DNA from: an uncultured Candidatus Poseidoniales archaeon
GTDB taxonomy: Archaea > Thermoplasmatota > Poseidoniia > Poseidoniales > Poseidoniaceae
Direction of reading: 5' to 3'
DNA length: 64,000 nt
Assembly (NCBI GenBank): GCA_964526385.1
Contig: CAZGJD010000003.1
Span: 55,225-119,224 of the forward strand
Position 1 is the stretch's first letter, and each line of letters opens with the position of its first letter. Below the pieces are notes generated by a model. That model was not told the DNA's origin, searched no databases, and was given only the letters and a program-made list of their open reading frames with translations. Of this stretch, positions 3,876 to 55,886 are shown in pieces. The position numbers and the translations under genes were made by a program.

Positions 3876-4057
3876 AACATCGCCTCTAATCTCCGGATTC
3901 ACAACACCAACTTAACACATTGGTACAGATTTCAATTGGAAAGTATCAAAATTACTTTATAATATCATATATTTTTCTTCCAAAAATTAACATTGTATCA
4001 TATTCGAAATAAAATATCATTTTTAAATTCCTTTGATATTTGCACGCAGTAATACGT
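3876..4057 (-). promoter_or_regulatory. AT-rich intergenic spacer upstream of the beta-helix surface protein gene; candidate archaeal promoter
   Basis: About 180 nt of roughly 75% A+T between the subtilase stop and the start at ~3875. TATA-like elements on the minus strand (TATTATAAAG, TTTAAAAATG). No experimental support. Confidence 0.25.
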
Positions 4058-5287
4058 TTAACCAGATTGACAGGTCACATTCTCCTGTATTTCAGTTAGC
4101 CATCCCATTCCATTTATCACGCCATATCCTGATTTTGAATTGTGAGAAATTAGTCCATCATCAGTGATTGTGGAATTCATCAAGGCATATTTTACTTCAT
4201 CAATACAATCAATATTTTTATTCTTAAGATGTGGTTCTGATTCAAGAATTAATGCCAAAATTCCACCGACTAAAGCTGTCGAATCACTCGTTCCTGTCGA
4301 GGTATAATACTGATTATTATCTCCAGTAGATATTAAATCTACACCAGGTGCGATTATCTCAGGCTTCAAATTGGGATGCTCTCTTTCTTGACCATCAGAA
4401 TTAACGCTTTCACCCAAAGAGGAGCCTTCCCAAACCTTTCCATCCTTTTGTGAAGCCCCTACAGTGATTACTCCAGGGACATTAGACGGTGTAGTGACCC
4501 TTCCATCATCACCGTCACCACCATCATTACCAGCGGCTGCAACGACAAATATTCCCTTGCTTAATGCAACATTTACGGCGTTAACAGTTGGTCCATTCCT
4601 TGGAGAATTAGGATCGTTGACACCTCCTAACGATAATGAAATAATATCTGCCTCAAATGATTCCCAGCACCATTCTATTGCATTGGCCACAACTTCTTCA
4701 TTACCCGTGTTTCCACCTTCACCATCATCCCCGAGAGCAGCTGCCATTCCGAGTACGACATTTGGTGCCGCCCCCACCATGTAACCATCAGCGGCCACGA
4801 TTCCTGCCATCATTGTGCCATGTGCCAAAGAACCTCGGTCTACGGGTTCTTGGGAACCTGTTGTAAAATCTCTGAAAATTAATTCCAAATTTTCAAAATC
4901 GGAATGACTAGCATCAATCCCTGTATCAACCATACATAATCTAACTCCATCACCTGTTAGTCCAATGTCTTGTAAGTCTCTTGCCCCAGAATCTTCGTAT
5001 GCCCATTCCGACGTTGGAGGTGGGATCTCAAGCCAAAAAAACTCCGACTTTAGAAGTGCCCAAAAAAGAATTGTCAGAATAACAAAAATACCAGCATTAG
5101 CAATCCTCCGTGTATTACGTCGCCTAGCAGGTACTGTATGAACGGGTAATGGAGCCCATCCAACTACTTCAGACCTCCACCCGTCTTGATGCCCATTTGT
5201 GGAGGGGTCAACAGCAGAAACTATTCGGAAATCGGTAGGTTCCGGCATGAAATCAACGTTGTCAAGTTGATTGTCATCCCCCCACAT
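4058..5287 (-). CDS. membrane-anchored subtilisin-like serine protease (peptidase S8 family)
   Basis: Catalytic triad motifs in canonical order: MVDTGIDASHSDF (Asp), HGTMMAGIVAA (His), GTSDSTALVGGILAL (Ser). One N-terminal TM helix (GIFVILTILFWALL) after a 70-aa cytoplasmic leader. ATG start and TAA stop verified. Confidence 0.85.
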   Translation of the reverse strand: MWGDDNQLDNVDFMPEPTDFRIVSAVDPSTNGHQDGWRSEVVGWAPLPVHTVPARRRNTRRIANAGIFVILTILFWALLKSEFFWLEIPPPTSEWAYEDSGARDLQDIGLTGDGVRLCMVDTGIDASHSDFENLELIFRDFTTGSQEPVDRGSLAHGTMMAGIVAADGYMVGAAPNVVLGMAAALGDDGEGGNTGNEEVVANAIEWCWESFEADIISLSLGGVNDPNSPRNGPTVNAVNVALSKGIFVVAAAGNDGGDGDDGRVTTPSNVPGVITVGASQKDGKVWEGSSLGESVNSDGQEREHPNLKPEIIAPGVDLISTGDNNQYYTSTGTSDSTALVGGILALILESEPHLKNKNIDCIDEVKYALMNSTITDDGLISHNSKSGYGVINGMGWLTEIQENVTCQSG

Positions 5288-8300: not shown

Positions 8301-11300
8301 CCATGTTCCGTCAGTAGTATCCAAGAATATTCTGAAAGTTACAGATACATTGTCTGGATTTGCAATCAAATCAACTGGTTCCATTTCATATCCAGAATTA
8401 TTTTTCACTACCGGTTCGACATTCATCAATTCATTAGAAACTGTATAAGTCCAGTTGCCTTTGTTCAAATTGAACGTAAACATGCCAGAGTTATCAAGTT
8501 GTGACCTCCACTCTAATCCATCGTCGTTTGTTGCTATGATTTCTATCGATTGGGAACCTGGTATTTCATTACTCCAAACAGCACCTGAGCCATTTGTCAA
8601 AGATTCCCTGATGTACACTGTTCCTTCTACATTTCCAGTATTTAGTAGGTATATGTTACCACTTTCGAGGTCTGGTGCATTTTCTACAAGTATTCCACCG
8701 GCATATGTTGAAGATCCGGAGAATCTGTCAGCTGTGACGTGGAAAACCATGTTCTCTGGTAATCGCATCGAGTAATTACCATTGAAATCAGATATTGTAT
8801 CGATGACAATTGAACCTGAACGAGCTTCTATCTTGACATTGCTTGCAGGCTCTATTGTTGCGTTAGATGGGTCATCCAGATAGACGTTGGTTAGATTCTC
8901 TAATGTTTCTCCATTATCCAATAACGTTTCGCCTTCTGCTCTGACGCTGTACAGCGTAGCATTAATCCAAACGCTTACAGAGTATGTTAAGTCGAACTCC
9001 ATATCCTCTGATTCTAAATCGAATTCATTCCACAAAACATATTCCTCGTCATTCTCATCGGAAACTATCCAACTTCCAGTGAATAATTCAACCGTCACAA
9101 TTCCATTCTCGTCAGAAACTGCAGTTTCGATAATTGGTAGTAAATCAGTGCTTTCTGTATTAGTAAAAGTCAATGTTCTATTGGATAAATCTAGGCCAGA
9201 ATCTCCTGCAAGCAGGTTAATTGTTACATCCTGTTTCAGTGGGATGAATGCTGCGAGTGAAATATTTTCTGAATCTTGGCCGACTGTGAAGTTCATCAGC
9301 ATTTCATACCAACCATCTCCATCAACATCAACTCTCCATTGGTATTCACCAGCAGCTATAGGACCATAACTGAAGTTACCTTCTTCATCAGTGATGATTT
9401 CTGCAATTGGTACATCTTCATCGATGTCTAAATCAAGAAGTTCAATCGTTTGATTTGGCAGTGGTTCTGGTGCTCCCGTATCGGTTGATTGAGTGAGTAG
9501 AGTATCCGCAAAGATAGAACCAGGTAGTACCATTTCTAGGTTGTTTGTTGGAGTCAGTCCAACTTCAACCGGGTCAGGTAGCAATACTTCTTTTCCATTT
9601 GGCATGATAGCTATCATGTTGTAAGTACCGGGTAATATTCCAGTCTTGTAGAACGAACCCGGGGCAACCATGTCACCCGAGAAAGTTCCCTCTCCGATGA
9701 ATAAACCAGTACCGTTTGCAGTTCCTATTCCTTCAAACAGACCTGTACCTTCGAAGGTTTCTCCGTCTAGATACTTAACTACCGTAACTGGCCCTTCAGC
9801 GGTCATCCTTCCAGTTGCATTTATTTCTCCCATGAAGTAATATGTGTCCGCTTCTTCTGTTAGACAAATTACGTGAGTAGAAGTTACTGTTTCGTTTTCT
9901 ACTGTTTCGTTGAATCTTGGTAGTTCAGGGCTAGAGGATTCGTTTGAATACTCACAAGATGGAATTGTATGTTCATAATCAACTGATGTTGCAACAATTG
10001 TTCCAGCACCACTGAATGTAGCACTAGCCGTGTACGACCTTCCATCGTCGACTATTCTTGTGAAATTACCTGTGAAACCTCTAACGATAGCAGGGTTACC
10101 TTGTGTGTCGAAAGAACCATTGTTGGTAAACAATACTTCACCGCTTCCTTGGATTATTCTCGAATCGCCGTCTTCAGTGGTGAATGAACCACTTGATGTT
10201 GATAGCGTGTAGTTCGAGGTCATACTCCAAATGTTCTTCAGGATGAAATCAATTCCATCTAATGCTTGTCCTTCGAATGATTCGTTGCCTGTCCAAGTAA
10301 CTGTTCCAGATATTCCACTTGAATCAACCGCAATATCGAAGGTTTCGTCGAAAGATGCTAATCTATCAGCTTGCTGACCTGTGATGTTGTAAGTTATTTC
10401 ACCCATCCAAGTCATGTTCGATACCTTTCCAAGAAGAGCGGTTATGGCGTTAGTTTCACGGTCTTCGTTAACATCAACCGTCAAATCACCTAGGCCACTT
10501 GAGTATTCGTTTGCTTGGAAGCTATCCTTAGCAACTGCATCGTCAAACTCACCTGCATATGCAGATGCTCTGATTTTACCAGCAGGCGCTATGAAACACC
10601 AATTTCCGTTCTCATCTGTGTCGGTATTACCGATTGGAATCCAGTATGTATCACTGTCAAGATCAGTTTCATCTTCTCCAGAGAATGCGTCTCTCTCTAA
10701 CAGTATCCTAACATCAGATAGTGGCAAACCATTGTCTGACATTGTTACTTGTCCGCAAATTTCAGCACCGGCATAATACTTCATTACTTTGACAAGGGTG
10801 TTTGAAGAACCAAGGCCGTCATTAGGGTCTTCAGCATTGTACCAGTTTGCAATCACCAAGTGGTTCATCATAGCACCAGGCATTGGTAATGCGTTGGTTA
10901 ATATTGAATTTGGAGTACCTGATTGTCCCCAGTGCTGTCCAGGTTGTTCAGTTGTTGCAAATCCAAGGTTCGGAGAACCATATCCAACGTAGGTTCTGGC
11001 AAGCATTGTATCAAAGAATGCTGGCTTGTGGTCAACTCTGACATCTACCAACTGTAGCGGGTCGAAGTCTTGACCTGCTTGTTGATTCAGGATATCCTTT
11101 GTCATTTCTTCATCGAACTCCTCTCGGGTCATTTCGTCATTGAATTGACCCCTTGAAGTCATGTAAACTTCATCCATGAAGGTTGAGAAGTCCTGACCTG
11201 ATAGAATTGAAACAGGTGCGAAAATACCTGTGGGGTTTCCGCCACTGTATTCAGAGTTGTAACTTCCACCACGAGGGTAAAGTTTTGTATCAACTGCCAA

Positions 11301-14300
11301 ATATCTAATTTCGTGGTCTCTGGTAATCAAATCACCTGGAGCTCCTTCGTAATCTTGAACAGAATAGACCGCATTGTTAGATAGGTCAGCGAACATTGTG
11401 TGGAGTGTGTCTGGATCCAATGATGAGGTTAACAATTGAGTGATTAGAGCGATTTTTGAATTTGTTCGGTGGATACCGGTACTTACAGAGTTAAATTCCT
11501 CGATTAGGTCTGAGGTATACCAATAATCTCCAACGATGTAGTGAGATGCTTCCATCTTCGTGTCAGCAGGTGACCTTACATTATTGTTGAATACAGATTC
11601 AGCATTAGCGAAATTCAAGTACGCGTCTCCCACACAGATGTCTACTTGCCCTTCATCAGGTATACACGGAATAATTTCTCCATCTTCGTAGACTTTGTAG
11701 ATCATTGGCCCATTGGTGTCAACAATTCCATCGACGATGTTGTAGCCTTGAGCAAGAACGACATCTCCATTGGTGTGGGTTACTTCGAATAGTCTTTCAA
11801 TGACATCATCTGACTCAAGATTTGTTTGAATCTTCACGAATTCAGCTACCTGCTCATCTGAGAGGTATTTACCGATTGTTTGAACAAACGATTTCGTGTG
11901 AACTCTGTTATCGTCACTTCCCACGTTGTAGATCATGTCTGCTTCTGACAATCTCCAGATGAACATCGAAACGAGGTCATCTTGGTTTCTTGACAAAAGC
12001 ATGTTACCTGCCGCAGGAATACCAGACTGGAAGTTGTCTGCTACTGATGGGTGGTCTCCAGTTTCAAGAGCTTGGAAACCATAATCCCACCACGATACGA
12101 ATGCAGGCTTATCGGAGTACTTCATCAAACACATATTTTCTGATGAGTCCCAATTTCCTGAGACATCATCACAAGCAGATTCCGATGTTACTCCAACGTG
12201 ATATACGTCCTGATTGGCTAACCATTCATAAGCCAAATTCCAACCTCTATCGTTGAATCCCGAACCAAACGAGCCTAGATACCATCTCGAATTGTCATCG
12301 TATGTTGAATCATCGAGTATTGAAAAACCAAAATCGTTCCACCTTAGGATGTCTGGAACTATGTTGTAAATTGTTTCATCCATGTTTGACTCATGAACTG
12401 TTGACGACGGCATTGCAGCGTCTAATCCATAACTTGCATGCTGAGAGAAAATAAGCATCAATACAAGACCAATTGCACTGAATTGTGGAGTTCTCCAAAC
12501 TGCTTTTCTTGCGTTGGTGATTCTCTCTCCAGGGGTTCTGATGCCCATTCTTCTCCATTTCTTTGCCATTTCACCGGCACCGCTTGCTCTCCAGAGTCCC
12601 GTGATACCCCACGCACCCATAACAGCCATTGCAGGTGCAGCGTTGAAGAGGAATCTTCCAGCTGACCAAGCCATGTATGATGCGATGAGAACCCACATAC
12701 CCAAAATTAGGTGAGGCTGATTTTTCTTTACTACTCCGTCCCACAAAGCAATGAATCCCATTACAATTGCAATAACGAAGACGATTGGTCCGAATGAAGC
12801 GAATAACTGGCCTCTACTCGGGGCACTCGCTTCCGCAATTGTTCCGAAAATCTTGTTCTTAGTAAAGTAACCTGAACCAGTGGTAAGCACTTCCCATGCG
12901 TTGGACATATCTGCTAATTGCAGTAAGTAAAGTACCAAACCAAAGACGAAACCACCAGTGAATAGAGAACCAAGGACCAGTAGCCATGGCTTGTCTCTAA
13001 ATCCAGTTGTAATCCAAGCTATCGCTAGTGTGAAAACAGCTATGAATAATAGCGGTTGTAATCCTGTTGAATTCCAAACCAGATCCAGCTGTGGGTGAGC
13101 ATAGAACGGGATTATCATGACGAAGATTGTTCCCAGCAATAGTAAATTGATTGTAGAGATTGTGGTGCTATCCTTCTTTCTCAACATGTTCATTGCAACC
13201 TGAACTACGTATGCAAGGAAGATAATTGCAGGTCCGTATACGAATCCTTTCCAACCCAATGCTACGATACCAAAACAGACACCTGCGGCTATGGCGTTCA
13301 TGGATGCAGTTCTCTTCTCCTTCATTACAACGCCAAGTGCGTTGTATATTCCGGAAGGCCAAGCATTTGTTGTTCGAGATAGTCTTTCATCTCCACCGTG
13401 TTTAATGGCACGCAGATAAAACATGAATGCTGCAGTCAAGAACAGCAAAACAAACGAATCGTGGTCAGCCATAGCCCAAGTTGATTTTTGAACGTGGGTC
13501 GGCATGAATGCAATTAACCAAGCCGCAATAACGCCAGCACCTTTACCGAAGTGGTCTTTTGCGATACCAGCCATTGGGAACACAATTAATGCACCGAAAA
13601 TTGCCGGTAGAGCAAGCATTGAATACCAAACAGCCTCGTCAGAGGACAAACCTAGGTTGGTCAATAGCATTGCAGCCATTGCCATAGACCATGAGAATAG
13701 AGGTGGTCTTGGATTGATACCTCCAACTGGATAGTTTCTGTCAGCATCCCATATCAAGTGTGCATTTTCTGCAATTACGTAGTCTACTACTCTCTTCATG
13801 TACCATGGGTCAGAACCTCCAGTTAAGTCCCATGATTCCAAACCGGAAGAATTCATTGAGGGCACGAGATACCACTGAATTCTGATTGCTAAGCCCGTGA
13901 TGAAAGCCATGAAAACCATGATTCCTGCCCAGTGATTGGACCAGAATACCTTAGCCTGACTTGGTTCGTGCGACTCACGATTTTTCCATCCACCGTATTG
14001 CTCGTGGGTTGCAAACCAATAGATCAAAACGCCGATGAAGAAGGTTATTCCAAACCAAATCCATACGGCCCAGGTTCCTTCAAGTCTGTCGCTTTCCCAG
14101 TGACTCGATTCATACAATGATGAAACGATGTATAGTAACCACATCGAACCTATAAACAAGGTCCTTGTGTACCATTTTTCAGCAGCCATCCAAGCACAGA
14201 CCAATGCTACAACACCAGTAAGTGCAGCAGGCCAGAATCCAATATATCCGTGATAATTGTCCAAGCCTGAGATTCCAAGAATATTTAGATCACCCAGTGT

Positions 14301-15029
14301 ACCGAAATAGTACAAAGTCAGAATGTGGGTTAAAGCCCATACTCCAAGTGCAATTTGCAGAGGAAGAGTAGCTTTGTTCCATTTTCCATCAAATGATTTG
14401 ATGTAGCCAAACCATCCTACATCGGTCGCAGGTGTTAGTACTCCTCGCAGTAGAACTGCAGCAAGTAATCCGAGTACTGTGAATATACTCCATGTACTGA
14501 AGAAGACATACCCCACAGCCTCTTGCCATGCTCCATTTCTTACATACTCTTCACCTTCGATTACCAACAAATTGGTTTGTGTATCCGCAAAGTTTGCTGC
14601 TGAAACAACAGCAGTCCACAGTCCGACCATGCTGAATACAAGGACGGTATTCCACTCATGTCTGCCACTGTTATCAAGAAGATATCCACCAAACATAGTC
14701 ACCAAGAAAATCGTGGCCACAAAGTTGGAATCTGCAACGCTTGCAACAACATTGGAGAGTATCAATGAAACAATCAATACAGCGAGGGAAACAGATGCTG
14801 TAGGGAATGTTATGATTTTTTTCTCACGCAGGTAGCGTGGTGTCATTGCCAATATTGCGCCTAAGGCAATCATAGCAAATGGTGTCATTTCATTCATATC
14901 CAGAACTAAACCAAAATCTAGTCCATAATCCGCTAACAGAGCCAACAAAATCGCTATGGGGGCTAATAGCCAACCAAGCATAGGTTCTGGGGCTCCAATT
15001 TTACTGTCGTTTTCTGTCGACATATTCAT
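5370..15029 (-). CDS. aglB: giant 3,219-aa membrane protein: extra N-terminal polytopic domain, then an AglB/STT3 oligosaccharyltransferase core, then ~2,100 aa of tandem carboxypeptidase-regulatory-like/Ig-like modules, then a C-terminal TM anchor
   Basis: Translation shows the STT3 EL1 signature DPWYMKR...IWDADRNYPVGG after a TM helix (about aa 420-455) and the catalytic FVSWWDYGFQ...VADNFQ motif (about aa 978, nt ~12081-12095). More than 20 predicted TM helices lie in the first ~1000 aa. The C-terminal two thirds carry repeats such as DEEGNFSYGPIAAGEYQWRV, TDENGSFAKYVPGGFWYVEV, SDFNGNYSMRLPENMVFHV. The chain ends in the TM helix VVIFMLTILALYGGYKVARKGSSSRF. Confidence 0.8.
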   Translation of the reverse strand: MNMSTENDSKIGAPEPMLGWLLAPIAILLALLADYGLDFGLVLDMNEMTPFAMIALGAILAMTPRYLREKKIITFPTASVSLAVLIVSLILSNVVASVADSNFVATIFLVTMFGGYLLDNSGRHEWNTVLVFSMVGLWTAVVSAANFADTQTNLLVIEGEEYVRNGAWQEAVGYVFFSTWSIFTVLGLLAAVLLRGVLTPATDVGWFGYIKSFDGKWNKATLPLQIALGVWALTHILTLYYFGTLGDLNILGISGLDNYHGYIGFWPAALTGVVALVCAWMAAEKWYTRTLFIGSMWLLYIVSSLYESSHWESDRLEGTWAVWIWFGITFFIGVLIYWFATHEQYGGWKNRESHEPSQAKVFWSNHWAGIMVFMAFITGLAIRIQWYLVPSMNSSGLESWDLTGGSDPWYMKRVVDYVIAENAHLIWDADRNYPVGGINPRPPLFSWSMAMAAMLLTNLGLSSDEAVWYSMLALPAIFGALIVFPMAGIAKDHFGKGAGVIAAWLIAFMPTHVQKSTWAMADHDSFVLLFLTAAFMFYLRAIKHGGDERLSRTTNAWPSGIYNALGVVMKEKRTASMNAIAAGVCFGIVALGWKGFVYGPAIIFLAYVVQVAMNMLRKKDSTTISTINLLLLGTIFVMIIPFYAHPQLDLVWNSTGLQPLLFIAVFTLAIAWITTGFRDKPWLLVLGSLFTGGFVFGLVLYLLQLADMSNAWEVLTTGSGYFTKNKIFGTIAEASAPSRGQLFASFGPIVFVIAIVMGFIALWDGVVKKNQPHLILGMWVLIASYMAWSAGRFLFNAAPAMAVMGAWGITGLWRASGAGEMAKKWRRMGIRTPGERITNARKAVWRTPQFSAIGLVLMLIFSQHASYGLDAAMPSSTVHESNMDETIYNIVPDILRWNDFGFSILDDSTYDDNSRWYLGSFGSGFNDRGWNLAYEWLANQDVYHVGVTSESACDDVSGNWDSSENMCLMKYSDKPAFVSWWDYGFQALETGDHPSVADNFQSGIPAAGNMLLSRNQDDLVSMFIWRLSEADMIYNVGSDDNRVHTKSFVQTIGKYLSDEQVAEFVKIQTNLESDDVIERLFEVTHTNGDVVLAQGYNIVDGIVDTNGPMIYKVYEDGEIIPCIPDEGQVDICVGDAYLNFANAESVFNNNVRSPADTKMEASHYIVGDYWYTSDLIEEFNSVSTGIHRTNSKIALITQLLTSSLDPDTLHTMFADLSNNAVYSVQDYEGAPGDLITRDHEIRYLAVDTKLYPRGGSYNSEYSGGNPTGIFAPVSILSGQDFSTFMDEVYMTSRGQFNDEMTREEFDEEMTKDILNQQAGQDFDPLQLVDVRVDHKPAFFDTMLARTYVGYGSPNLGFATTEQPGQHWGQSGTPNSILTNALPMPGAMMNHLVIANWYNAEDPNDGLGSSNTLVKVMKYYAGAEICGQVTMSDNGLPLSDVRILLERDAFSGEDETDLDSDTYWIPIGNTDTDENGNWCFIAPAGKIRASAYAGEFDDAVAKDSFQANEYSSGLGDLTVDVNEDRETNAITALLGKVSNMTWMGEITYNITGQQADRLASFDETFDIAVDSSGISGTVTWTGNESFEGQALDGIDFILKNIWSMTSNYTLSTSSGSFTTEDGDSRIIQGSGEVLFTNNGSFDTQGNPAIVRGFTGNFTRIVDDGRSYTASATFSGAGTIVATSVDYEHTIPSCEYSNESSSPELPRFNETVENETVTSTHVICLTEEADTYYFMGEINATGRMTAEGPVTVVKYLDGETFEGTGLFEGIGTANGTGLFIGEGTFSGDMVAPGSFYKTGILPGTYNMIAIMPNGKEVLLPDPVEVGLTPTNNLEMVLPGSIFADTLLTQSTDTGAPEPLPNQTIELLDLDIDEDVPIAEIITDEEGNFSYGPIAAGEYQWRVDVDGDGWYEMLMNFTVGQDSENISLAAFIPLKQDVTINLLAGDSGLDLSNRTLTFTNTESTDLLPIIETAVSDENGIVTVELFTGSWIVSDENDEEYVLWNEFDLESEDMEFDLTYSVSVWINATLYSVRAEGETLLDNGETLENLTNVYLDDPSNATIEPASNVKIEARSGSIVIDTISDFNGNYSMRLPENMVFHVTADRFSGSSTYAGGILVENAPDLESGNIYLLNTGNVEGTVYIRESLTNGSGAVWSNEIPGSQSIEIIATNDDGLEWRSQLDNSGMFTFNLNKGNWTYTVSNELMNVEPVVKNNSGYEMEPVDLIANPDNVSVTFRIFLDTTDGTWENGSAIMPAFDIVTMSGIGINATVTPDDYDLVTGEVTLELSVGQYTIELSPTLPTDENATDYYLQSDFIPNLNLGLGPSGEPLSVPIIPEYLVTGNVTTESGMALSNSTVWLRNEAGDDFHPLNTDENGSFAKYVPGGFWYVEVADFTADDSGETEIFRGVLDLNGAERDIVWQTQTAMPVTMQLQEMFTGVNVTATRITAVSNEGLGNVSLGPSDNFGNISEVLMPGDWTLHLNRTETLEQWILEEGVYLSDNLENGIWNVGVVEVNKHVLIGGKIFWDLNDDDLPSPGEGVENATVNVTAERGWEWTLQTDADGVWSVFVPIRDDYDVQAEKPGFDSATYTNETSSTYAYVVNDTHESRDLELTAGLVSVSGNVTDSVPTAMRLEGATVTLYPASGIVRDPVVITNLVYENDILSWSDDIMPGNWIVYVEGTDTDDNGGGIAVGLLEASVQEGASLDLEMRKGGRLTLTSSWTDIENTVLTAGDVGEDVFVTISLGDEVEWDIAFDTNGELNIILPSCEGSQSCVDLESEFETIQHDLQLTMPYSSGIVVDIDQDTAIDKEMQFTKKVDSDLTVSIESVNSGATYSVDDLGDLTATETDSNGYEVIELTLNLIYNGTEIEDVFSTSGSLDLTQDSEFWSVEFKDKDGNWVDSINVTMGIGQNNSDENQVLTNQVDVRITLPLQNQSITYDDGHTVKMRFTAEGGLSEETVVVRVPQIYNISLEDAPESIGIADGGTVLVTLRVDNLGNGDDTVSVTSSIPQVCVDAGWDVTPKLSNLTIAANNDRSQSFTVFAPTNSTLDDCNVAFEATSEGDFEVQTASTEVVIAVADLTILTESIEPRNADAFANQDGIFRVPIENTGFLSTGDVIVYLEASQEGTDYPTQQTTIRIAAQDVEWAEFSYSDLPPGTAHLRVRLDVIDTPLDSTVEPVDFSRKFSNVADGEESPWITVVIFMLTILALYGGYKVARKGSSSRF

Positions 15030-16426: not shown

Positions 16427-16512
16427 ATCGCTTCCATCTATACGAGGCAAATAAGTCCATCTGAACGAATTTGTTCCATTCAATTCAAAGGCTTAGTTGT
16501 GCCCAAGCAATC

Positions 16513-17121
16513 ATGGGCGACTTCAATACCTTCGAGATGATGTTATTCACATTGTGGATTTATCTCCCAGGATTTTTGGTTAACACCTTTGCAATGATGT
16601 GGGGCAAGTGGCTGCCAAAAACTGGATATGGACCATGGCCAATAGATGGTGGTAAATTTCACAAAGATGGAAATCGTATTTTAGGAGACGGAAAAACTTG
16701 GAACGGACTTGTTGGTGGGTCATTAACCAGCGGATTGCTTTGTGTCTTGATGGTAAGCATACCAGAAAATTGGATATTCATTTCACCCGTTAATGGTTCA
16801 ACTGGCTGGGCTGCTAATGCATTTTTGCTGGGAACCTTCTTAGGATTTACAAGCCTAATCGGCGACTCAACTGGATCTTATTTAAAAAGGAGAAGAGGAA
16901 TGAAAAGAGAAGGGGATGTGTCGAGCAAAGCACCGTTATTAGATACTCTTCCTTTTGCAGTTTCAGTATTCATATTCGGTCAGATATTCTTAACCGAATC
17001 TGCTCACGGTAGTAGGGAATTAATCGTACCAATGATTCTACTGGTCGTAATCACTCCATTATTGCATAGGTCATTCAATCTGATTGGATACAAAATCGGC
17101 TGGAAAGATGTGCCTTACTGA
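16513..17121 (+). CDS. carS: candidate CDP-archaeol synthase (CarS, DUF46 family) membrane protein
   Basis: About 200 aa with 5 predicted TM helices and the motif GPWPIDGGKFHKDGNRILGDGKTWNGLVGG, which matches my recollection of the DUF46/CarS PIDGG...DGRRILGDGKTW signature. The track start at 16471 is TTG; the first ATG (MGDFNTF) is at 16513. Confidence 0.55.
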   Translation: MGDFNTFEMMLFTLWIYLPGFLVNTFAMMWGKWLPKTGYGPWPIDGGKFHKDGNRILGDGKTWNGLVGGSLTSGLLCVLMVSIPENWIFISPVNGSTGWAANAFLLGTFLGFTSLIGDSTGSYLKRRRGMKREGDVSSKAPLLDTLPFAVSVFIFGQIFLTESAHGSRELIVPMILLVVITPLLHRSFNLIGYKIGWKDVPY

Positions 17122-20256: not shown

Positions 20257-21210
20257 TTACAATCCGGGTGCAGACTCGAGCCATTCGGCTTCGTCATCAT
20301 CATCATCTTCGTCAGACCTACGTTTTGCAATAACTGCCGCTGCGAATCCAAGCATTGCTAACGAAGGAATCAATTCGAAACCTGGAAGATATACACCACG
20401 AACGTAGATAGTGATCATTTGGGACATGGAATTACATCCACCTGTTTCATATCTACAAGAGAATTCTGAAATTGCTTCGAATTCTAGAGTGTAATATTCG
20501 TCAGTCCAACCTTGGTTCTTAGGAGTTCTTACCATGACTCTAACCTTCTGAGGTGCTGCCATTCCGTCGATTTCAACAGCAACCATTGGTATTGAAATTT
20601 GGAATCCACTTTCTTCGAGTTTGTCCCTGGAAGCATCTGTAACTCCGACCTTGAACTTATCAGCCCAGTTTCCTTGGTTGTAAACCTTAAACTCAAAGTT
20701 GTGATCGGTCTTAGGAGATAGTTGCAAGAATGGCTCAGTAGCTTCTACCTGAAGTCTACTAAATTGAAGGATGTTGATAATCATCTGAACTTGTGATTCA
20801 GCGATGTTTGGTGGTGGTGCACCGTTTGCTTCAACCACTGTAGCAGTTACGATTAGATTTCTACCTGACATTGTCATTCTCTGGTCTGCTCTAACCGTAG
20901 TCTGGAATTCAGATTCTGCGTTTGGTCCAAGAGAGATAGTACCTGGGGCAGCAACAACAAGTCCGTCAGCCGAAACTTGAATTTGTATTCTTTCAGCGTA
21001 TGTGTTTGGATTTGTAACCTTACAGTTTGCGAATCCAGTCAGGGTTGCTCCTGGGTAAACAGGTACGTCTACCGCACCACTTGGATTCGGAGATAGACAC
21101 TGCAAATCGACTGCAGGAACAGATAACTGGGCCTGTGCAGGAGTAGCCATCACGAGAATGCTAGCCATGTATACCGCAAGTAAGAACAAAGAACGTCTCA
21201 AAGCCTTCAT
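20257..21210 (-). CDS. secreted surface protein with a signal peptide and a PGF-CTERM-like C-terminal anchor
   Basis: The ATG at 21210 gives the signal peptide MKALRRSLFLLAVYMASILVMATPAQAQ (the track start at 21375 is further upstream). C-terminus PGFELIPSLAMLGFAAAVIAKRR followed by the acidic tail SDEDDDDDEAEWLESAPGL. Confidence 0.5.
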   Translation of the reverse strand: MKALRRSLFLLAVYMASILVMATPAQAQLSVPAVDLQCLSPNPSGAVDVPVYPGATLTGFANCKVTNPNTYAERIQIQVSADGLVVAAPGTISLGPNAESEFQTTVRADQRMTMSGRNLIVTATVVEANGAPPPNIAESQVQMIINILQFSRLQVEATEPFLQLSPKTDHNFEFKVYNQGNWADKFKVGVTDASRDKLEESGFQISIPMVAVEIDGMAAPQKVRVMVRTPKNQGWTDEYYTLEFEAISEFSCRYETGGCNSMSQMITIYVRGVYLPGFELIPSLAMLGFAAAVIAKRRSDEDDDDDEAEWLESAPGL

Positions 21211-21355
21211 ACCTTCACCTATATCCAAGCCACAATCTCGACCCTCATAACCATTTTGGGGACTTGCCTTTACGAAATGGACATCAGTGAGTCTTTCGAT
21301 TAAACCACATATTGATATGATATCTCTATTTCGGTAGGGTTGAGAGGAATAAAAT

Positions 21356-21802
21356 ATGGATGATAAAAATCTCATTATCGCAGAAGCACACTGTGACGGA
21401 CCGTGTGGTGTCTACGACCCATCAAGCGCACGAATCGCTGGAGAAGCAGTCCAGTCGATGACGAACAAAATGTTGGCACTAACCTGCCCGTCCACAGAGG
21501 ATGGCCCAGCAATGGCAGCATACCTAAACACAATGTCAAGATACGCAGCTATCAAGGAAGAAGAAGCACAGAAGTGTAAGGATGAAATTCTTGTTCTATG
21601 GACAGACTTTTTCAAGCCCCAGCACCTTGAGGCAAATCCAAACTTGCACGACACATTTTGGAAAGCAGCCAAACTATGTTCAGCCTGCAAGGTTGAGGTT
21701 TCCGCTGAACACGCACAGGAACTCATGGACGCAATCGAAGAAATTCACGGAATGTTTTGGGCTGCCAAGGGACGTGAAGTTACTTGGATAAGAGCATCAT
21801 AG
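21356..21802 (+). CDS. sodN: nickel-containing superoxide dismutase precursor (NiSOD)
   Basis: An 11-aa propeptide MDDKNLIIAEA is followed by the Ni-hook HCDGPCGVYDPSSARIA (Streptomyces NiSOD mature N-terminus is HCDLPCGVYDPA). Downstream LWTDFFKPQHLEANPNLH...FWAAK parallels the Streptomyces LWSDYFKPPHFEKYPELH...FWETK. Confidence 0.9.
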   Translation: MDDKNLIIAEAHCDGPCGVYDPSSARIAGEAVQSMTNKMLALTCPSTEDGPAMAAYLNTMSRYAAIKEEEAQKCKDEILVLWTDFFKPQHLEANPNLHDTFWKAAKLCSACKVEVSAEHAQELMDAIEEIHGMFWAAKGREVTWIRAS

Positions 21803-22080
21803 ACGTCAAGATATCTGGCGATTCAATGTGGCCGTCATTCGTAGACGGCGACGTAGTAGAATTTGAAAGTATGAAAGATCAAATTGTAAATCTAGAAGAT
21901 ATTATTGTATTTAATCACCCTCTGAAACGTGATGTTATCTGTATTAAAAGAGTAAAAAGAATCTCTGACAACAGGTATTTCGTTGAAGGGGATAATCCTG
22001 ACCCTACTTCCTCAGAAGATTCTCATAATTTTGGTCTAATCGACAGAAAAAACATTCTTGCAATTTTGCAAAATGAATAG
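21784..22080 (+). CDS. sodX: NiSOD maturation peptidase (SodX, truncated signal-peptidase I / S26 family)
   Basis: GDSMWPSF (Ser nucleophile box), ICIKRVKRI (Lys box) and VEGDNPD (GDN box) in 98 aa. Starts with TTG at 21784, overlapping the sodN 3' end by 19 nt. It lies immediately downstream of sodN, as in bacterial sodN-sodX pairs. Confidence 0.75.
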   Translation: MDKSIIDVKISGDSMWPSFVDGDVVEFESMKDQIVNLEDIIVFNHPLKRDVICIKRVKRISDNRYFVEGDNPDPTSSEDSHNFGLIDRKNILAILQNE

Positions 22081-22089
22081 TGAAAAAGG

Positions 22090-22162
22090 TGGACCCGGAG
22101 GGACTTGAACCCACGACCGCCCGGTTATGAGCCGGGTGCTCCACCAACTAAGCTACAGGTCC
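22090..22162 (-). tRNA. tRNA-Met (anticodon CAT), elongator type or possibly tRNA-Ile2; CCA not encoded
   Basis: Minus-strand sequence GGACCTGTAGCTTAGTTGGTGGAGCACCCGGCTCATAACCGGGCGGTCGTGGGTTCAAGTCCCTCCGGGTCCA folds as a cloverleaf. Acceptor 7 bp with one U-G; D-stem GCTT/GAGC; anticodon stem CCCGG/CCGGG with loop CTCATAA; T-loop TTCAAGT; discriminator A. The T-stem has one U-U mismatch. G1-C72, so not an initiator. Confidence 0.85.
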
Positions 22163-30255: not shown

Positions 30256-33200
30256 ATGACTGCAAGGGCTATTTCACTAATTGTCATACTCTTATTGGCA
30301 CCTGTTTCAATCTTGATTGAGCCAATAGAAGCAGGCGTTTCTGGGAGGGCATTGGCTTGCTCAGGCTCGGTATGCCTAAACGAGGCTTTACCGAATCCAA
30401 GTGGATATGATGATGCAACATGGCCTAATGGAGAATGGATGGAGATTCATAATTCAGGGTCTACAGCAATTGATATTCTAAATTGGGAACTCGAAAATAA
30501 AGCAGGAAAGATTCTACAATTCAATTCGACGACAATAGTCGGCTTTGAAAGTGGCAATTCATCGACCTGGACAATTTCACCTGGTGAGTATATGGTAATT
30601 GCAAGAAATGGATATGGTAATTTCTACTTGACAAATTCATTCGATTACATAACTATGACAGACGCATCTGGCAACTTCAAAGACCAAGCCTCTTGGAATT
30701 CAACATCGTCTGGCGTCAGCTTAGAAGAGGATTCAGCAAACTCGATGAACGATTGGATTCCAACCAACACACCAACCCCAGGATCGGCAAATAGTCAAGC
30801 AACTGGACCTGTTTACACTGGAGTATTGTTCAATGAAGTTATGGCAAACCCATTCTTTTCTGAGGATAATTCTTCATGGCCGGGCGGTGAGTGGATTGAA
30901 CTGCACAACGAAGGCACATCAGATGTAGATTTGACAGGATGGACAATCGTTGATAATGCTGGAAATAATATCCCCCTAAATGAATCACACTTAATAGGAA
31001 ATTCCAATATCATAGTAGCTGGAGGATACAGGGTTATTGCAGTCAATTCATCCAATGCATGGGGTGTTTTGAATAACGGAGCAGAAAGTTTGCGATTGAC
31101 CATTGCAAATGGTTCCACCACAGACCAAATTTCTTGGACTGATACCGTTGCTGGATTTTCATCAGAAGAACTCGCAGATGGTTCTTGGTTCGTAACTTCT
31201 TATCCATCACCCGGAACTGAAAACCCTAACCTTTGGACAAATATTGTTGACATGCAATCTGACGTTGTAATTACCGAGGTATTGGCTAATTCATCTAGAG
31301 ATGGATTCGCATATCCGGAAGGAGAATGGGTGGAATTGCACAACACAGGAAATACAGACTGGGACCTAGCTGACTGGAAAATAAGAGACGGAATGGGAAA
31401 TTTGACTCATATCAATATTGGAAATCTGGTAATGAATAATTCGCAACCAGGGACAATTATTGCAGCAGATTCTAGAAGACTCGTTCAATTTTCAGAATTG
31501 GTGACATTATGGAACCAGTATAACCATTTAATGCTGGAAGACCCTACTGGGAATGTCGTTTACAAAGCATGGTGGGATTCTGACCCTGGATTAAACAACT
31601 CTTTGATTGAGGCCCAAAATCCAGATCTTCCTTGGGTTATAGCGAGTTGGCCAACACCCGAAAATCCAGAACCAGGCACTACTTCGATTGTTGGAGATAT
31701 AGCATTCAATGAAATATTCCCCGACGCAATAGGAAACGATACCGATGTTTGGCCAAATGGTGAATGGATTGAATTGATTAACACAGGTACTCAATCAGTA
31801 GATATCGCAAATTGGTACTTTTCATCAGGTTCGAGAAATTTCAATATTAACGTAATTCAACTACCTGAAAAAGATAGTACGACAATAAACCCGGGTGAAA
31901 TTTTCGTTGTCGCCATAAATGGAACACAGAGTTTCTACCTAAAGAACACCGCACCTGATACAATTGAACTAAGGAATTCTGCAAATCAAATTGTTTCAAC
32001 AATAACTTACAACAAAACAACAGAAGGAGAATCGCTTTGGTATTGGAATAACGACTGGACTCAAGCACCTTATCCAACCCCTAATCAGCCGAACCCGCAA
32101 ACTTCTCCTTACGCTGGAGATGTTAGCATAGAAATTACCGAGGTGCTAGCCCACTGTTCTTCCGACACTATCACGCCGTTAGACGATTGGATTGAAGTCA
32201 ATAATACTGGAGGCCAAGCGATTGATTTGAATGCGTGGAGATTAATTTCTGGAGACGGTGATCTAATTCATGCAAGGTCTGACCGATTGTACAATTCAAT
32301 CAACACTCTAATCCAGCCTGCAGACAGAAAAATAATCACTGCTCCGAACTGGTTTATCAGTGGCCTCGGCGATTCAGTAACCCTCGAGGACCCTGATGGA
32401 AACGTCGTTGATTCTGTTGTTTGGACGACTGTCACTGATTGTAAAACAATGGACTCAGATGGCGAGGTATTACCTTGGCCAACGCCCGGTTATGAGGAAC
32501 CTGATATTTCCTCATACGCAGGTCCAGAAGACCTCGTTTTTAGTAGATTCATGTTCCAAGAATCAAGTGCTTCAACCAATGATGAATTCTTTGAGATAAC
32601 AAACATCGGAAATCGAACCGCCGTAATGACCGGCTGGACCGTAACAAAAACAACAACTAGTGGACAATCATTCAATGGTACATTCAATTCCTTATTCATA
32701 GATTCAGGGAATTCAGTTATCATCAGCCCAGATGCAAGTGCTGTTAAGGCAATGGAACAATCAACAATTGTTAATGCAGAGGATGTAATGGATTTCCCAG
32801 TTTGGCTTCCTGACAGTGGTTCTACAATACAATTGATTTCTCCACTTGGGGTAGTTGCTGACACTTTCGTATATGGCAACGGACCAACTGACCTTGTTGG
32901 ATGGTCCGGTCCAGCGATTAGTGAACCTGTAACAACTGTGGATAGAATTCTGTATATTCGTGGCGATGGTTGTGGAAACTTGGTTGACACAAACCAATCC
33001 GCTGATTGGGAGATTAGGTGGTCGGTTGCAGGGGCTTCACACTTCTGTGGTATTAACTCATTTTCAGACAACGCAAACGTTACGCCGTTGATTGCACCAG
33101 AAGCAGGTTTAGACAATGTTGTTTCGATGATTAATGATGCTCAACAAAGCATACACGTACACATTTACCAACTGCATCATGTTAACCTCGCTTATGCATT

Positions 33201-35013
33201 AATTCAAGCACAGACTAGAGGGGTCGAAGTGACGGTAGTTATTCACGAGCCTGAAAATTGGTGGTCTCAAAGCGAGATTTCTCAAAGTAGAGGCATAGCA
33301 TATGAATTAGAAAATTCCGGTGTAGATGTCCTGCAATTCTCATCATCTTCATCCTCACCATACCAGTACCTTCACTCCAAAGTATCAGTAGTGGACGATG
33401 AAGTCGTTTGGTTCGGTTCTGGTAATTGGAAATCTTCCAGTATGCCAGCAGATAATCGTGGCAATCGAGACTGGGGTATAATCATCGAGAGTTCTGATTT
33501 AGCGCAAATCGTCCTTGAAAGGATAACATTTGATGAAGACCCAAGCCAACTCCATGTTGAAGATTCCACATTTACACAACCCGCATCGGGTTCATATGAA
33601 TCTCCAATTGAATACGTACCAACAAACATCAAACAACCTATGCTTGAATCTGTAAATGGGGAATTGTTGACCTGTCCAGATGATTGTGTACAAGGACTTG
33701 CGGAATTGATTCAATCCGCAGAATCCGAAATCTTGCTATCCTTGCAATATTTCGAAATGGACTGGTATTGGGGTTGGCAAACAAACCCCCTCCTCGAATC
33801 CTTGGAGGATGCTGCTGAGAGAGGTATAACAATACGCATGGCAATCAATCAACACTACGTAAATGAAAATCCTGGGATAAGAGAAGCAGTGAATGAGTTA
33901 AACAGTTGGCAAGGTGATGTTGAAGCAGTCCTCATGTCTGAAAACGAAACTGTCCGAAAACTTCACAACAAAGGTATGATTATCGATGGAGAAATTGTCT
34001 TAGTTTCCAGTATCAACTGGGGTGATAACTCAATTCTAAGAAATAGGGAGATGGGAATCGCAATTGAGAACGCAAACATCGCTGCCGTTTACGAACAGTC
34101 ATTCTGGGAAGACTGGAATAGAATGGATACCTACACAGATACGGATATTGATGGAATTCCAGATTATTGGGAGCTAGAAAATGGGTTGGACAGAACCATG
34201 GATGACAGTGGGCTCGACAATGATAATGACGGAATTACTAACCATGGAGAATTTACATATGGTTCAGATCCAAACTCGAACGATAGCGATGGAGATTGTA
34301 TTCTTGATGGGGATGAGGTAATTTGGGCGTCACAAACAACAGGAGTTACAGCAAGCAATGCTCTCTTGCTTGAGGATGCAGATCTAGATGGGTTAAAGGA
34401 TAGTGAAACACTTGGTTGCAAACCTGAAATTCAAGGAGAAATCATGGATGAAGATGACGACGGAGTGGTTGATTCTGAAGATGATTGCCCCAATACTGCA
34501 ACTGGCGACCAAGTTAATTCAGATGGCTGTTCACCTGAACAGATTACTCAACCTGTAAACAATAATGATGCAGATGAGGACGGGATTCCAGATGATGAAG
34601 ATGAATGTCCGAACACACCCCCAGAAACGGCTACAGATACACAAGGATGTTCCAGTGAGCAAAATAAGGAACAATCTTCAGATGATTCCCAAGGTAGTAA
34701 TGATTCCAGTGGGTTAAACTTCATGATAGTTTTAATCGTAATTGGCACAATCATTTGTGGAGGTGCACTGTTCGTTCTATTGAGGAATCCAACACCACAG
34801 GTTGACGTTTTGGAAGGTATAGATGATGATTCTAAGTCGTATGAAATGCCAGTTTTGGACGGCACTAACGAAGTAGAAAATCAAGGAGGAATAGATATGA
34901 GTAAATTCCCAGGATGGGACACTAGTCAAGTTGAGCGTTACCTAGAATCTGGGTGGACCGAGGAACAACTATCTGAATGGTATCAGCAACAAATTGAGGA
35001 AAATTCCGCATAA
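30256..35013 (+). CDS. 1,585-aa secreted surface protein: signal peptide, at least 5 lamin-tail-domain (LTD) repeats, a phospholipase-D-family (two HKD motifs) phosphodiesterase/nuclease domain, thrombospondin-type-3-like Ca-binding repeats, and a C-terminal TM anchor
   Basis: Signal peptide MTARAISLIVILLLAPVSILIEPIEAG. LTD-like repeats EVMANP...WPGGEWIELHNEGTSDVDLTGWTIVDNAGN, EVLANS...EGEWVELHNTGNTDWDLADWKIRDGMGN and three more. HKD motifs HSKVSVVDDEVVWFGSGNW (nt ~33361-33430) and HNKGMIIDGEIVLVSSINW (~33961-34020). D-rich repeats DTDIDGIPD, DNDNDGITNHGE, DSDGDCILDGDE, DEDDDGVVDSEDDCPNT. TM helix MIVLIVIGTIICGGALFVLL. Confidence 0.75.
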   Translation: MTARAISLIVILLLAPVSILIEPIEAGVSGRALACSGSVCLNEALPNPSGYDDATWPNGEWMEIHNSGSTAIDILNWELENKAGKILQFNSTTIVGFESGNSSTWTISPGEYMVIARNGYGNFYLTNSFDYITMTDASGNFKDQASWNSTSSGVSLEEDSANSMNDWIPTNTPTPGSANSQATGPVYTGVLFNEVMANPFFSEDNSSWPGGEWIELHNEGTSDVDLTGWTIVDNAGNNIPLNESHLIGNSNIIVAGGYRVIAVNSSNAWGVLNNGAESLRLTIANGSTTDQISWTDTVAGFSSEELADGSWFVTSYPSPGTENPNLWTNIVDMQSDVVITEVLANSSRDGFAYPEGEWVELHNTGNTDWDLADWKIRDGMGNLTHINIGNLVMNNSQPGTIIAADSRRLVQFSELVTLWNQYNHLMLEDPTGNVVYKAWWDSDPGLNNSLIEAQNPDLPWVIASWPTPENPEPGTTSIVGDIAFNEIFPDAIGNDTDVWPNGEWIELINTGTQSVDIANWYFSSGSRNFNINVIQLPEKDSTTINPGEIFVVAINGTQSFYLKNTAPDTIELRNSANQIVSTITYNKTTEGESLWYWNNDWTQAPYPTPNQPNPQTSPYAGDVSIEITEVLAHCSSDTITPLDDWIEVNNTGGQAIDLNAWRLISGDGDLIHARSDRLYNSINTLIQPADRKIITAPNWFISGLGDSVTLEDPDGNVVDSVVWTTVTDCKTMDSDGEVLPWPTPGYEEPDISSYAGPEDLVFSRFMFQESSASTNDEFFEITNIGNRTAVMTGWTVTKTTTSGQSFNGTFNSLFIDSGNSVIISPDASAVKAMEQSTIVNAEDVMDFPVWLPDSGSTIQLISPLGVVADTFVYGNGPTDLVGWSGPAISEPVTTVDRILYIRGDGCGNLVDTNQSADWEIRWSVAGASHFCGINSFSDNANVTPLIAPEAGLDNVVSMINDAQQSIHVHIYQLHHVNLAYALIQAQTRGVEVTVVIHEPENWWSQSEISQSRGIAYELENSGVDVLQFSSSSSSPYQYLHSKVSVVDDEVVWFGSGNWKSSSMPADNRGNRDWGIIIESSDLAQIVLERITFDEDPSQLHVEDSTFTQPASGSYESPIEYVPTNIKQPMLESVNGELLTCPDDCVQGLAELIQSAESEILLSLQYFEMDWYWGWQTNPLLESLEDAAERGITIRMAINQHYVNENPGIREAVNELNSWQGDVEAVLMSENETVRKLHNKGMIIDGEIVLVSSINWGDNSILRNREMGIAIENANIAAVYEQSFWEDWNRMDTYTDTDIDGIPDYWELENGLDRTMDDSGLDNDNDGITNHGEFTYGSDPNSNDSDGDCILDGDEVIWASQTTGVTASNALLLEDADLDGLKDSETLGCKPEIQGEIMDEDDDGVVDSEDDCPNTATGDQVNSDGCSPEQITQPVNNNDADEDGIPDDEDECPNTPPETATDTQGCSSEQNKEQSSDDSQGSNDSSGLNFMIVLIVIGTIICGGALFVLLRNPTPQVDVLEGIDDDSKSYEMPVLDGTNEVENQGGIDMSKFPGWDTSQVERYLESGWTEEQLSEWYQQQIEENSA

Positions 35014-43820: not shown

Positions 43821-43877
43821 GTCCCTCAATCTATGCTAACCCTCTATCACATAAATTGATTTCCGACATTATGCCTA

Positions 43878-46007: not shown

Positions 46008-46057
46008 AACCTATACATCATCCATTTAAAAGAATAGAAGATAAAATCATGTTTCGA

Positions 46058-46075
46058 TTTTTTTTATATAGGATA
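46058..46075 (+). promoter_or_regulatory. candidate archaeal TATA box (TTTTTTTATATAGG) in the divergent intergenic region
   Basis: TTTATATA lies about 33-40 nt upstream of the ATG at 46103, consistent with a near-leaderless transcript. AT-rich divergent spacer between kinase 2 (minus) and the 46103 gene (plus). Confidence 0.35.
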
Positions 46076-46102
46076 TAAATAATAGAATTTGATAATTATA
46101 AT

Positions 46103-54259: not shown

Positions 54260-54264
54260 TTCTC

Positions 54265-55878: not shown

Positions 55879-55886
55879 GTGATATC

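Follow-up and report, generated by a model that had tools for sequence, protein, structure and literature searches.

A predicted nickel superoxide dismutase operon with its own SodX-type protease gene is common to the Poseidoniales and probably goes back to an ancient bacterial gain

Results

A linked sodN and sodX in an archaeal contig

The stretch of DNA analysed here, referred to as the window, comprises 64,000 nucleotides from an uncultured Candidatus Poseidoniales archaeon (assembly GCA_964526385.1, contig CAZGJD010000003.1, positions 55,225 to 119,224 of the forward strand). Our subject is a pair of overlapping plus-strand genes at 21356-22080, sodN and sodX, which to judge from their motifs and family matches are a genuine nickel superoxide dismutase (NiSOD) gene and the gene for its maturation protease. 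The original prediction, made from the letters alone, had described an 11-residue propeptide followed by the nickel-binding hook (Ni-hook) HCDGPCGVY, and an overlapping TTG-initiated gene for a 98-aa SodX with GDSMWP, KR and GDN boxes, and both descriptions agree with what we found. sodN (21356-21802) encodes a precursor of 148 aa with a mature form of 137 aa, and its translation reads MDDKNLIIAEA followed by HCDGPCGVYDPSS. The ATG at 21356 is the sole possible start because the reading frame opens just one codon upstream, and the leader is therefore exactly 11 residues long; its codons (21356-21388) end with an A-x-A motif directly before His12. The Ni-hook, residues 12-20 (21389-21415), holds His1, Cys2, Cys6 and Tyr9 in the numbering of the mature enzyme. 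SodN scored 155.3 bits against Pfam PF09055 Sod_Ni (E 1.5e-45; cut-off 25) and 183.6 bits against NCBIfam TIGR02753 (cut-off 90). His12 is paired with residue 1 of the mature Streptomyces NiSOD in the Protein Data Bank (PDB) entries 1q0d and 1t6u (phmmer, E 2.7e-21 for 1q0d), and the alignment spans the full length of the solved chain. By these criteria SodN carries a short N-terminal leader that would need to be removed.

sodX (21784-22080, plus strand) starts with TTG, overlaps the 3' end of sodN by 19 nt and encodes a 98-aa protein with the features of a minimal soluble Ser/Lys peptidase of the S26 family. The S26 boxes mark Ser14 (21823-21825) and Lys55 (21946-21948) as the catalytic residues: GDSMWP contains Ser14, IKRV contains Lys55-Arg56 and GDN occupies positions 69-71. 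These boxes, like the DSHN at 79-82, line up with their counterparts in SpsB and other signal peptidases. Against Pfam Peptidase_S26 the protein scored 41.1 bits (cut-off 22.9), and its best-scoring NCBIfam family was TIGR02754 sod_Ni_protease, with 59.0 bits (E 4.7e-16; curated cut-off 63.25). When 42 SodX relatives were compared, all 42 matched TIGR02754, with a top E-value of 4.7e-20 that was better than those for the signal peptidase I models. Ser14, Lys55-Arg56, Gly69-Asp70-Asn71 and Asp79-Ser80-His81-Asn82 were invariant among them, with overall identity down to about 43%. The AlphaFold model of SodX is all-beta (pLDDT 75.2) and lacks a membrane anchor, and its top PDB matches are the type I signal peptidases SpsB and LepB, with query-normalised TM-scores of 0.78-0.79.

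The TTG start is supported by comparison with the loci that share the gene neighbourhood of the window (type A, see below), a small addition of the present analysis. Most of these loci have ATG at the corresponding site, which lies 19 nt inside sodN and 11 codons ahead of GDSM; one has GTG there, and the two closest have TTG. In public annotations, ten gene calls (P0123-P0132) begin at the internal Met15 and yield an 84-aa 'hypothetical protein' without the catalytic serine, for example 'hypothetical protein VW862_03755'. Some Joint Genome Institute (JGI) annotations already name sodX, and one JGI call labels a relative 'phage repressor protein C'. At the locus L085, from a Prochlorococcus metagenome-assembled genome (MAG), no gene is called at 3496-3852, the site of a TTG-initiated 118-aa sodX ORF (open reading frame). 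Gene callers often shorten the TTG-start archaeal sodX, with loss of the catalytic serine, or miss it. Ten cyanobacterial strains with sodN have been counted as 'lacking sodX' (PMC8346466), and such counts might partly reflect missed calls.

The pair is widespread and tightly linked in Poseidoniales

Among 5.8 billion proteins searched, 4771 were SodN relatives. The top 120 of them were 78-90% identical to SodN, and all of those with an organism name were named as Marine Group II (MGII) archaea, under the labels Poseidoniaceae, Thalassarchaeaceae, 'Euryarchaeota' or 'Methanobacteriota'. Among GTDB contigs with one genome per species, at least 581 stretches encode a SodN relative, and the best 80 of these formed our locus set. 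SodN identity in this set was 79-96%, and almost all loci were labelled Poseidoniales, Poseidoniaceae, Thalassarchaeaceae or with older MGII names. sodX lay directly 3' of sodN at all 78 loci where this could be tested; the contigs of the other two end 55-68 bp past sodN. The Ni-hook, HCD[G/A]PCGVY, was invariant in 80 of 80 loci, and so was the presence of A-x-A before its histidine (AEA in 67, ASA in 6, AQA in 3, ADA in 2, ATA and AFA in one each). The invariant site, A-x-A/H, is the predicted point of cleavage in archaeal SodN and a further small addition of this work. On this evidence the pair is order-wide in Poseidoniales and ordinary for the present genome.

The genomic loci most similar to the pair bear the labels Candidatus Poseidoniaceae, Poseidoniales or 'MGIIa-K1'. 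At the best of them, L001, SodN is 96% and the upstream neighbour 99% identical, and the metagenome contig L090 encodes an identical SodN; from these matches the window is assigned to an MGII archaeon of the Poseidoniaceae (MGIIa). The archaeal setting named in the original prediction is borne out by these loci and, within the window, by a gene for CDP-archaeol synthase and one for an STT3/AglB-type protein. Three of the 80 loci come from bins labelled otherwise, namely Verrucomicrobiales (L028), Salinimicrobium (L044) and Deltaproteobacteria (L078, a single amplified genome). The bins of L028 and L044 are probably contaminated, since their sodN-sodX flanks are typical of Poseidoniales. L078 has unique flanks, with beta-oxidation enzymes, an aldehyde dehydrogenase and a T2SS-F-like protein, domains that fit an archaeal or a bacterial host.

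The 80 loci sort into a few housekeeping contexts that are conserved and specific to particular clades. In type A, represented by the window and 14 loci, a secreted-protein gene on the minus strand is followed by sodN and sodX and then by tRNA-Met and an HD-phosphohydrolase gene, both on the minus strand. The neighbours of the 44 type B loci, assigned by eye, are a carbamate-kinase-like gene, an Asn/Asp-tRNA synthetase and ribose-5-phosphate isomerase, and those of the 12 type C loci, several of which are labelled Thalassarchaeaceae, are a phosphoglycerate-dehydrogenase-like gene and an aminoacyl-tRNA synthetase, likewise assigned by eye. A fourth group comprises seven loci. Within type C, three loci (L060, L063 and L080) carry sodN-sodX in the opposite orientation to that in L037, L039, L043 and L071, between the same two flanking genes.

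In the window, ARAGORN and Rfam place tRNA-Met(CAT) at 22088-22162 on the minus strand, with its 3' end 7 bp from the sodX stop codon. This tRNA gene is a conserved neighbour that stands outside the enzyme system. It follows sodX in 12 of the 14 type A genome loci, at a distance of 2-11 bp, and in all 28 metagenome loci with this tRNA and the left flank. In type B, tRNA-Lys(CTT) lies 0-30 bp after sodX (42 loci), and in the fourth group tRNA-Ala(CGC) lies about 190 bp upstream of sodN (7 loci). Insertions of about 0.7 kb occur at the sodX/tRNA junction in several type A and type B loci; they include a 203-aa ORF in L002, L068, L069 and L077. The recurrent adjacency of sodN-sodX to tRNA genes in three contexts is another small addition of the present analysis.

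Sequence upstream of sodN

Upstream of sodN lies a conserved element, CACATATTGATATG (21306-21319, plus strand), a candidate TATA-like archaeal promoter, and the columns around CACAtgTTGATATG, 37-50 nt upstream of the sodN ATG, are nearly invariant in the 14 type A loci. A Shine-Dalgarno-like GAGAGG can be read directly at 21342-21347 (plus strand), 9-14 nt before the start codon, and the AGAGG(G/A)AT block is conserved in type A. The CACAtnTTGATATG element at 21306-21319 together with GAGAGG suggests that sodN has its own promoter and ribosome-binding site.

The neighbouring minus-strand gene was listed as a 372-aa ORF (20257-21375), which in this form overlaps the start of sodN. Its real start is likely at 21210, with the Met of MKALRRSLFLL; AGGTGA precedes this codon, and a signal-peptide-like segment comes after it. 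A start at 21210 therefore leaves a divergent intergenic region of 145 bp before sodN. The encoded protein has no Pfam hit, and its C-terminal end consists of a hydrophobic stretch and then an acidic tail. Between the two divergent genes, an almost invariant block of about 37 nt, TCTCGACCCTCATAACCATTTTGGGGACTTGCCTT (21236-21272), is present with its core motif in 12 of the 14 type A loci, with varying sequence around it; neither strand gave a supported RNA structure or an Rfam match. The block was confined to loci that have the same upstream neighbour and was absent in other contexts, and for this reason it probably serves the secreted-protein gene, as promoter, operator or leader, and not sodN.

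Trees and base composition

To place SodN we used neighbour-joining (NJ) distance trees of 137 or 92 columns with 200 bootstraps, which give a rough phylogeny only. The mature archaeal (MGII) SodN sequences were monophyletic in 198 of 200 bootstraps, with very short internal branches. The nearest non-archaeal SodN was of the Prochlorococcus type, at about 60% identity; the name came from a search for homologues of the nearest representative at the 50%-identity level. The Streptomyces NiSOD and the remaining 50%-cluster representatives were 42-49% identical to MGII SodN. As to the donor, which the original prediction had proposed to place by phylogeny, the picocyanobacterial type is nearest, but its sister relation to the MGII sequences has only moderate support. 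In a tree of concatenated SodN and SodX, loci of the same context mostly clustered, with types A, B and C not strictly monophyletic, type A forming a basal grade and the fourth group (type D) forming a 100%-supported clade inside type B.

The base composition of the pair was compared with that of the window, which has a mean GC of 0.41. sodN has a GC of 0.474 (z +2.1) and a GC at third codon positions (GC3) of 0.442, whereas sodX has a GC of 0.350 (z -2.0), and the codon adaptation index (CAI) against other window genes was within range for both (40 genes scored). The comparison of 21356-22080 with its flanks, which had been suggested as a check for foreign origin, gave no coherent foreign signal, because sodN and sodX deviate in opposite directions. 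A foreign-island signature in GC, GC3, CAI and sliding GC was therefore rejected as a sign of recent transfer. The high GC of sodN could be a faint relic of foreign origin, or a consequence of high expression or strong constraint.

Other genes of the window

As the original prediction had stated, there is no iron/manganese superoxide dismutase (Fe/Mn SOD) in the window: none occurred among the Pfam hits of window ORFs of at least 150 aa, the set to which Pfam scans of the window refer throughout, and tblastn with an approximate E. coli SodA sequence gave a best E of 0.78. Genes related to oxidative stress are an AhpC/TSA peroxiredoxin (51051-51518) and, in connection with stress or light, an amine-oxidase-type flavoprotein, possibly phytoene desaturase, together with a phytoene/squalene synthase (54256-56882). 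Other genes belong to purine, riboflavin, glycine-cleavage and carotenoid functions. CDP-archaeol synthase, the archaeal marker, lies at 16471-17121. A giant minus-strand ORF of 3219 aa (5370-15029) has an STT3 (AglB-type oligosaccharyltransferase) N-terminal domain and a very long C-terminal region with a CarboxypepD_reg-like domain, and a 1585-aa plus-strand protein (30256-35013) combines six LTD (lamin-tail) domains with two PLD-like phosphodiesterase domains. At the left window end an open frame of at least 1303 codons (1-4057, minus strand), absent from the ORF tool list, may run off the window. A low-GC stretch (40687-46879) encodes a pair of large Ser/Thr protein kinases, of 782 and 709 aa, together with a weakly PP2C-like phosphatase and an unassigned 258-aa ORF (GC 0.336). 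GC is 0.31-0.35 at 43-47 kb, as against about 0.42 elsewhere, and the segment may have been acquired more recently or may be fast-evolving.

Discussion

We consider it very probable that the pair described here is a two-gene NiSOD operon of an MGII Poseidoniaceae archaeon, encoding a pro-enzyme together with SodX, and that it stems from a single ancestral gain from bacteria with mainly vertical descent since. SodN would first be made in the cytoplasm as an inactive precursor that still bears its 11-residue leader, and sodX is probably translationally coupled to it, since the sodX TTG lies 19 nt inside sodN. SodX, a type-I-signal-peptidase core of about 98 aa with a predicted Ser14/Lys55 dyad and no anchor, would cut after A-x-A (Ala9-Glu10-Ala11) and make His12 the new N-terminus. 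S26 peptidases favour alanine at positions -3 and -1, and the A-x-A/H site would fit this preference. Nickel would then be held by the free N-terminal amine, the backbone amide of Cys2 and the thiolates of Cys2 and Cys6, joined in the Ni(III) state by an axial His1 imidazole. By cycling between Ni(II) and Ni(III), the Ni-hook would convert superoxide to O2 and H2O2 in the cytoplasm, and the H2O2 may be removed by a peroxiredoxin such as the AhpC/TSA protein of the window. As to history, composition, contexts and trees taken together point to one ancient inter-domain transfer of sodN-sodX followed by mainly vertical inheritance. In this scheme the Poseidoniales ancestor would have gained the pair once from a bacterial pool whose nearest extant relatives are marine picocyanobacterial NiSODs, and a few relocations between conserved chromosomal contexts would have followed.

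The presence of NiSOD in MGII and its bacterial origin are already known from the literature, so the original prediction was no longer up to date in describing the enzyme as mainly bacterial. In a 2021 preprint, Sutherland et al. reported NiSOD in Poseidoniales through inter-domain transfer, nested among Marinisomatota in their tree (bioRxiv 10.1101/2021.01.12.426412). Qu et al. 2023 (Microbiol Spectr, PMC10783094), who surveyed 250 MGII genomes and reported predicted NiSOD structures, found NiSOD alone in all eight MGIIa clades and four MGIIb clades and Fe/MnSOD alone in the other MGIIb clades; their MGII NiSOD clade was sister to Cyanobacteria, and an early bacterial transfer with vertical descent thereafter was inferred. 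NiSOD has also been noted in another order of Thermoplasmatota (Sheridan et al. 2022). Neither Sutherland et al. 2021 nor Qu et al. 2023 mentions sodX, the cleavage site or the genomic context. Our identity ranking and rough NJ tree agree better with a cyanobacterial than with a Marinisomatota affinity, with only moderate support for the sister relation to picocyanobacteria.

The original prediction had proposed a horizontal acquisition, and here its two parts have to be separated. A bacterial origin by horizontal transfer is plausible and would be ancient, as the archaeal sequences form a single clade that stands closest to picocyanobacterial NiSODs. In its own lineage, however, the pair is not unusual, and it is not a recent arrival. 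At least 581 species-level genomes have a relative, sodX is linked in 78 of 78 loci, the contexts are conserved and no consistent compositional anomaly was seen; SodN homologues are widespread and, as far as our trees indicate, mainly vertically inherited in these archaea, the very outcome that the original prediction had given as one that would speak against it.

Several observations weigh against the interpretation that we favour. The functions of archaeal NiSOD and SodX are carried over from the Streptomyces and cyanobacterial families, and MGII archaea are uncultured. The SodX score of 59.0 bits on TIGR02754 is below the curated cut-off of 63.25. The donor differs between studies, being Marinisomatota for Sutherland et al. 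2021 and Cyanobacteria for Qu et al. (PMC10783094). In our trees the MGII and Prochlorococcus-type sequences alone formed a group in 57 of 200 bootstraps, and with two more representatives, one from EukProt and one unnamed, in 46 of 200, and the poor resolution of the SodN tree within MGII leaves room for some transfers inside the order. The GC of sodN is the highest of the 40 scored window genes. Among window ORFs of at least 150 aa, the Pfam scan found no nickel importer of the Nik, NiCoT, HupE/UreJ or CbiMNQ types.

Three rival explanations question the genes or their residence in the archaeal lineage. One could argue that the ORF downstream of sodN encodes no dedicated NiSOD protease but a fragment of a generic or degenerate S24/S26 peptidase, or that it is no gene at all, in view of its score below the family cut-off, its TTG start, the ten public calls that begin at Met15 without the catalytic serine and the JGI label 'phage repressor protein C'. 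Against this, the ORF is kept 3' of sodN in all 78 testable loci, its Ser, Lys and GDN box never vary, against an overall identity of only 40-80%, and the ATG and GTG starts of relatives are in register with the TTG; TIGR02754 is the best NCBIfam family for the window protein and is matched by every one of the 42 relatives, the predicted fold resembles type I signal peptidases, and SodN offers the A-x-A site that such peptidases prefer, so we regard a non-dedicated ORF as very improbable. We find it even harder to credit that the pair is a recent, lineage-specific acquisition on a small genomic island beside tRNA-Met. The sodX end does lie 7 bp from a tRNA 3' end, a classic integration site, the GC of sodN is extreme among the scored genes, and the family is of bacterial origin. 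But 14 species-level genomes and 28 metagenome contigs from the clade have the same pair at the same place, orthologues at 79-90% identity occur in other Poseidoniales, and the archaeal SodN sequences form a monophyletic group that shares only about 60% identity with its nearest bacterial relatives. The GC-poor sodX deprives the two genes of a shared foreign signature. A repeat search found no att-like copy of the tRNA-Met 3' end and no other repeats around the pair, and the Pfam scan found no integrase in the window and no other mobility gene near sodN-sodX. The chance that a bacterial contig was mis-assembled or mis-binned with archaeal DNA is, in our view, negligible: three of the 80 related loci do come from bins labelled Verrucomicrobiales, Salinimicrobium or Deltaproteobacteria, yet the window pair sits within 64 kb of contiguous sequence that also bears CDP-archaeol synthase and the archaeal-type STT3 protein, the same synteny recurs across many independent assemblies, and the typical Poseidoniales flanks at L028 and L044 speak for contamination of those bins.

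A fourth explanation concerns movement within the order, and we judge it unlikely, though less so than the three above: sodN-sodX may have moved several times within Poseidoniales by insertion at tRNA 3' ends, as a past or present tRNA-associated cassette. Three conserved contexts each lie beside a different tRNA gene (tRNA-Met, tRNA-Lys and tRNA-Ala), the sodX/tRNA junction is variable, with the insertions of about 0.7 kb in several A and B loci, sodN-sodX is inverted relative to its flanks in three Thalassarchaeaceae loci, and some signal of horizontal transfer inside the MGII NiSOD tree has been mentioned by Qu et al. (PMC10783094). The lack of integrase, att-like repeat and other mobility genes near the pair counts against a cassette as well, and so does the lack of an empty site in an exact tRNA-Met scan of metagenome contigs, in which 30 of 30 matches carried the pair, all from the same clade, so that the scan is uninformative for other clades. 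Moreover, each clade tends to keep its context, and in the SodN+SodX tree most loci group with others of their own context. In compact genomes a position next to tRNA genes may be due simply to chance, or to the breakpoints of rearrangements. In its most specific form, in which a 0.75-kb sodN-sodX module relocated repeatedly in Poseidoniales at the 3' ends of tRNA-Met, tRNA-Lys and tRNA-Ala, the idea is speculative and we would not expect it to hold. If true, it would describe a minimal two-gene antioxidant cassette with tRNA-targeted mobility and could explain the crossing between cyanobacteria and archaea, for which the direction from archaea to cyanobacteria could also be considered.

On the favoured interpretation, that of a long-resident NiSOD operon, superoxide defence in this MGIIa archaeon depends on a nickel enzyme, a point that has already been made in the literature for the whole group. 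Such reliance fits an iron-poor surface ocean habitat and ties the cells to the marine nickel cycle. It is reasonable to suppose, as was originally proposed, that the cells need a supply of nickel, and the route of nickel import in MGII is not evident at the sodN-sodX loci.

One known counterpart is the SodN-SodX system of Streptomyces coelicolor and S. seoulensis, with which the archaeal pair shares a leader, predicted to be cleaved in MGII, followed by HCxxPCGxY and a small dedicated S26-type peptidase encoded downstream. The mature sequence of the Streptomyces enzyme (1q0d, 1t6u) can be aligned end to end with archaeal SodN at about 42% identity. The archaeal leader has 11 residues and ends in AEA, whereas that of Streptomyces NiSOD has 14 residues. 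Unlike the Streptomyces protein, archaeal SodN has a 12-residue insertion after helix 1 (residues 42-53, TCPSTEDGPAMA; 21479-21514) and a CSAC motif (about 21674-21685). The Streptomyces NiSOD is regulated by Nur or nickel. The insertion and the C-x-x-C motif (KLCSACKV) are common to the MGII and Prochlorococcus-type NiSODs aligned, and the MGII insertion itself holds a cysteine (LTCPSTEDG).

The picocyanobacterial (Prochlorococcus/Synechococcus) NiSODs are closer, with about 60% identity, the shared insertion and a shared C-terminal KAS/RAS tail. At the Prochlorococcus MAG locus L085, sodX is about 40% identical to that of the window, lies directly downstream of sodN and likewise has a TTG start. 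The cyanobacterial leader is longer, at about 20 residues, and sodX at L085 is immediately followed by a gene for a His-rich multi-pass membrane protein of 223 aa (3842-4513, minus strand), which we take to be the putative nickel permease 'sodT' of the cyanobacterial literature. tblastn with this membrane protein gave no homologue, either in the window or up to 6 kb from sodN at the 80 archaeal loci.

With type I signal peptidases such as E. coli LepB and S. aureus SpsB, SodX shares the Ser/Lys dyad and boxes B-E (GDSMxP, KR, GDN and S-x-DS), and its predicted structure has the common core beta fold (TM-score 0.78 to SpsB). The SodX substrate has Ala at -1 and -3, as do those of type I signal peptidases. 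Unlike these enzymes, SodX has only about 98 aa, no membrane anchor and no large beta-domain II, and its presumed substrate is cytoplasmic, with a leader that would serve as a short maturation peptide and not as a secretion signal. Finally, the MGII NiSOD of earlier publications belongs to the same gene family and the same lineage as the sodN of the window, and to that work the present analysis adds the universal linkage of sodN and sodX, the A-x-A/H site, the conserved contexts and the adjacency to tRNA genes.

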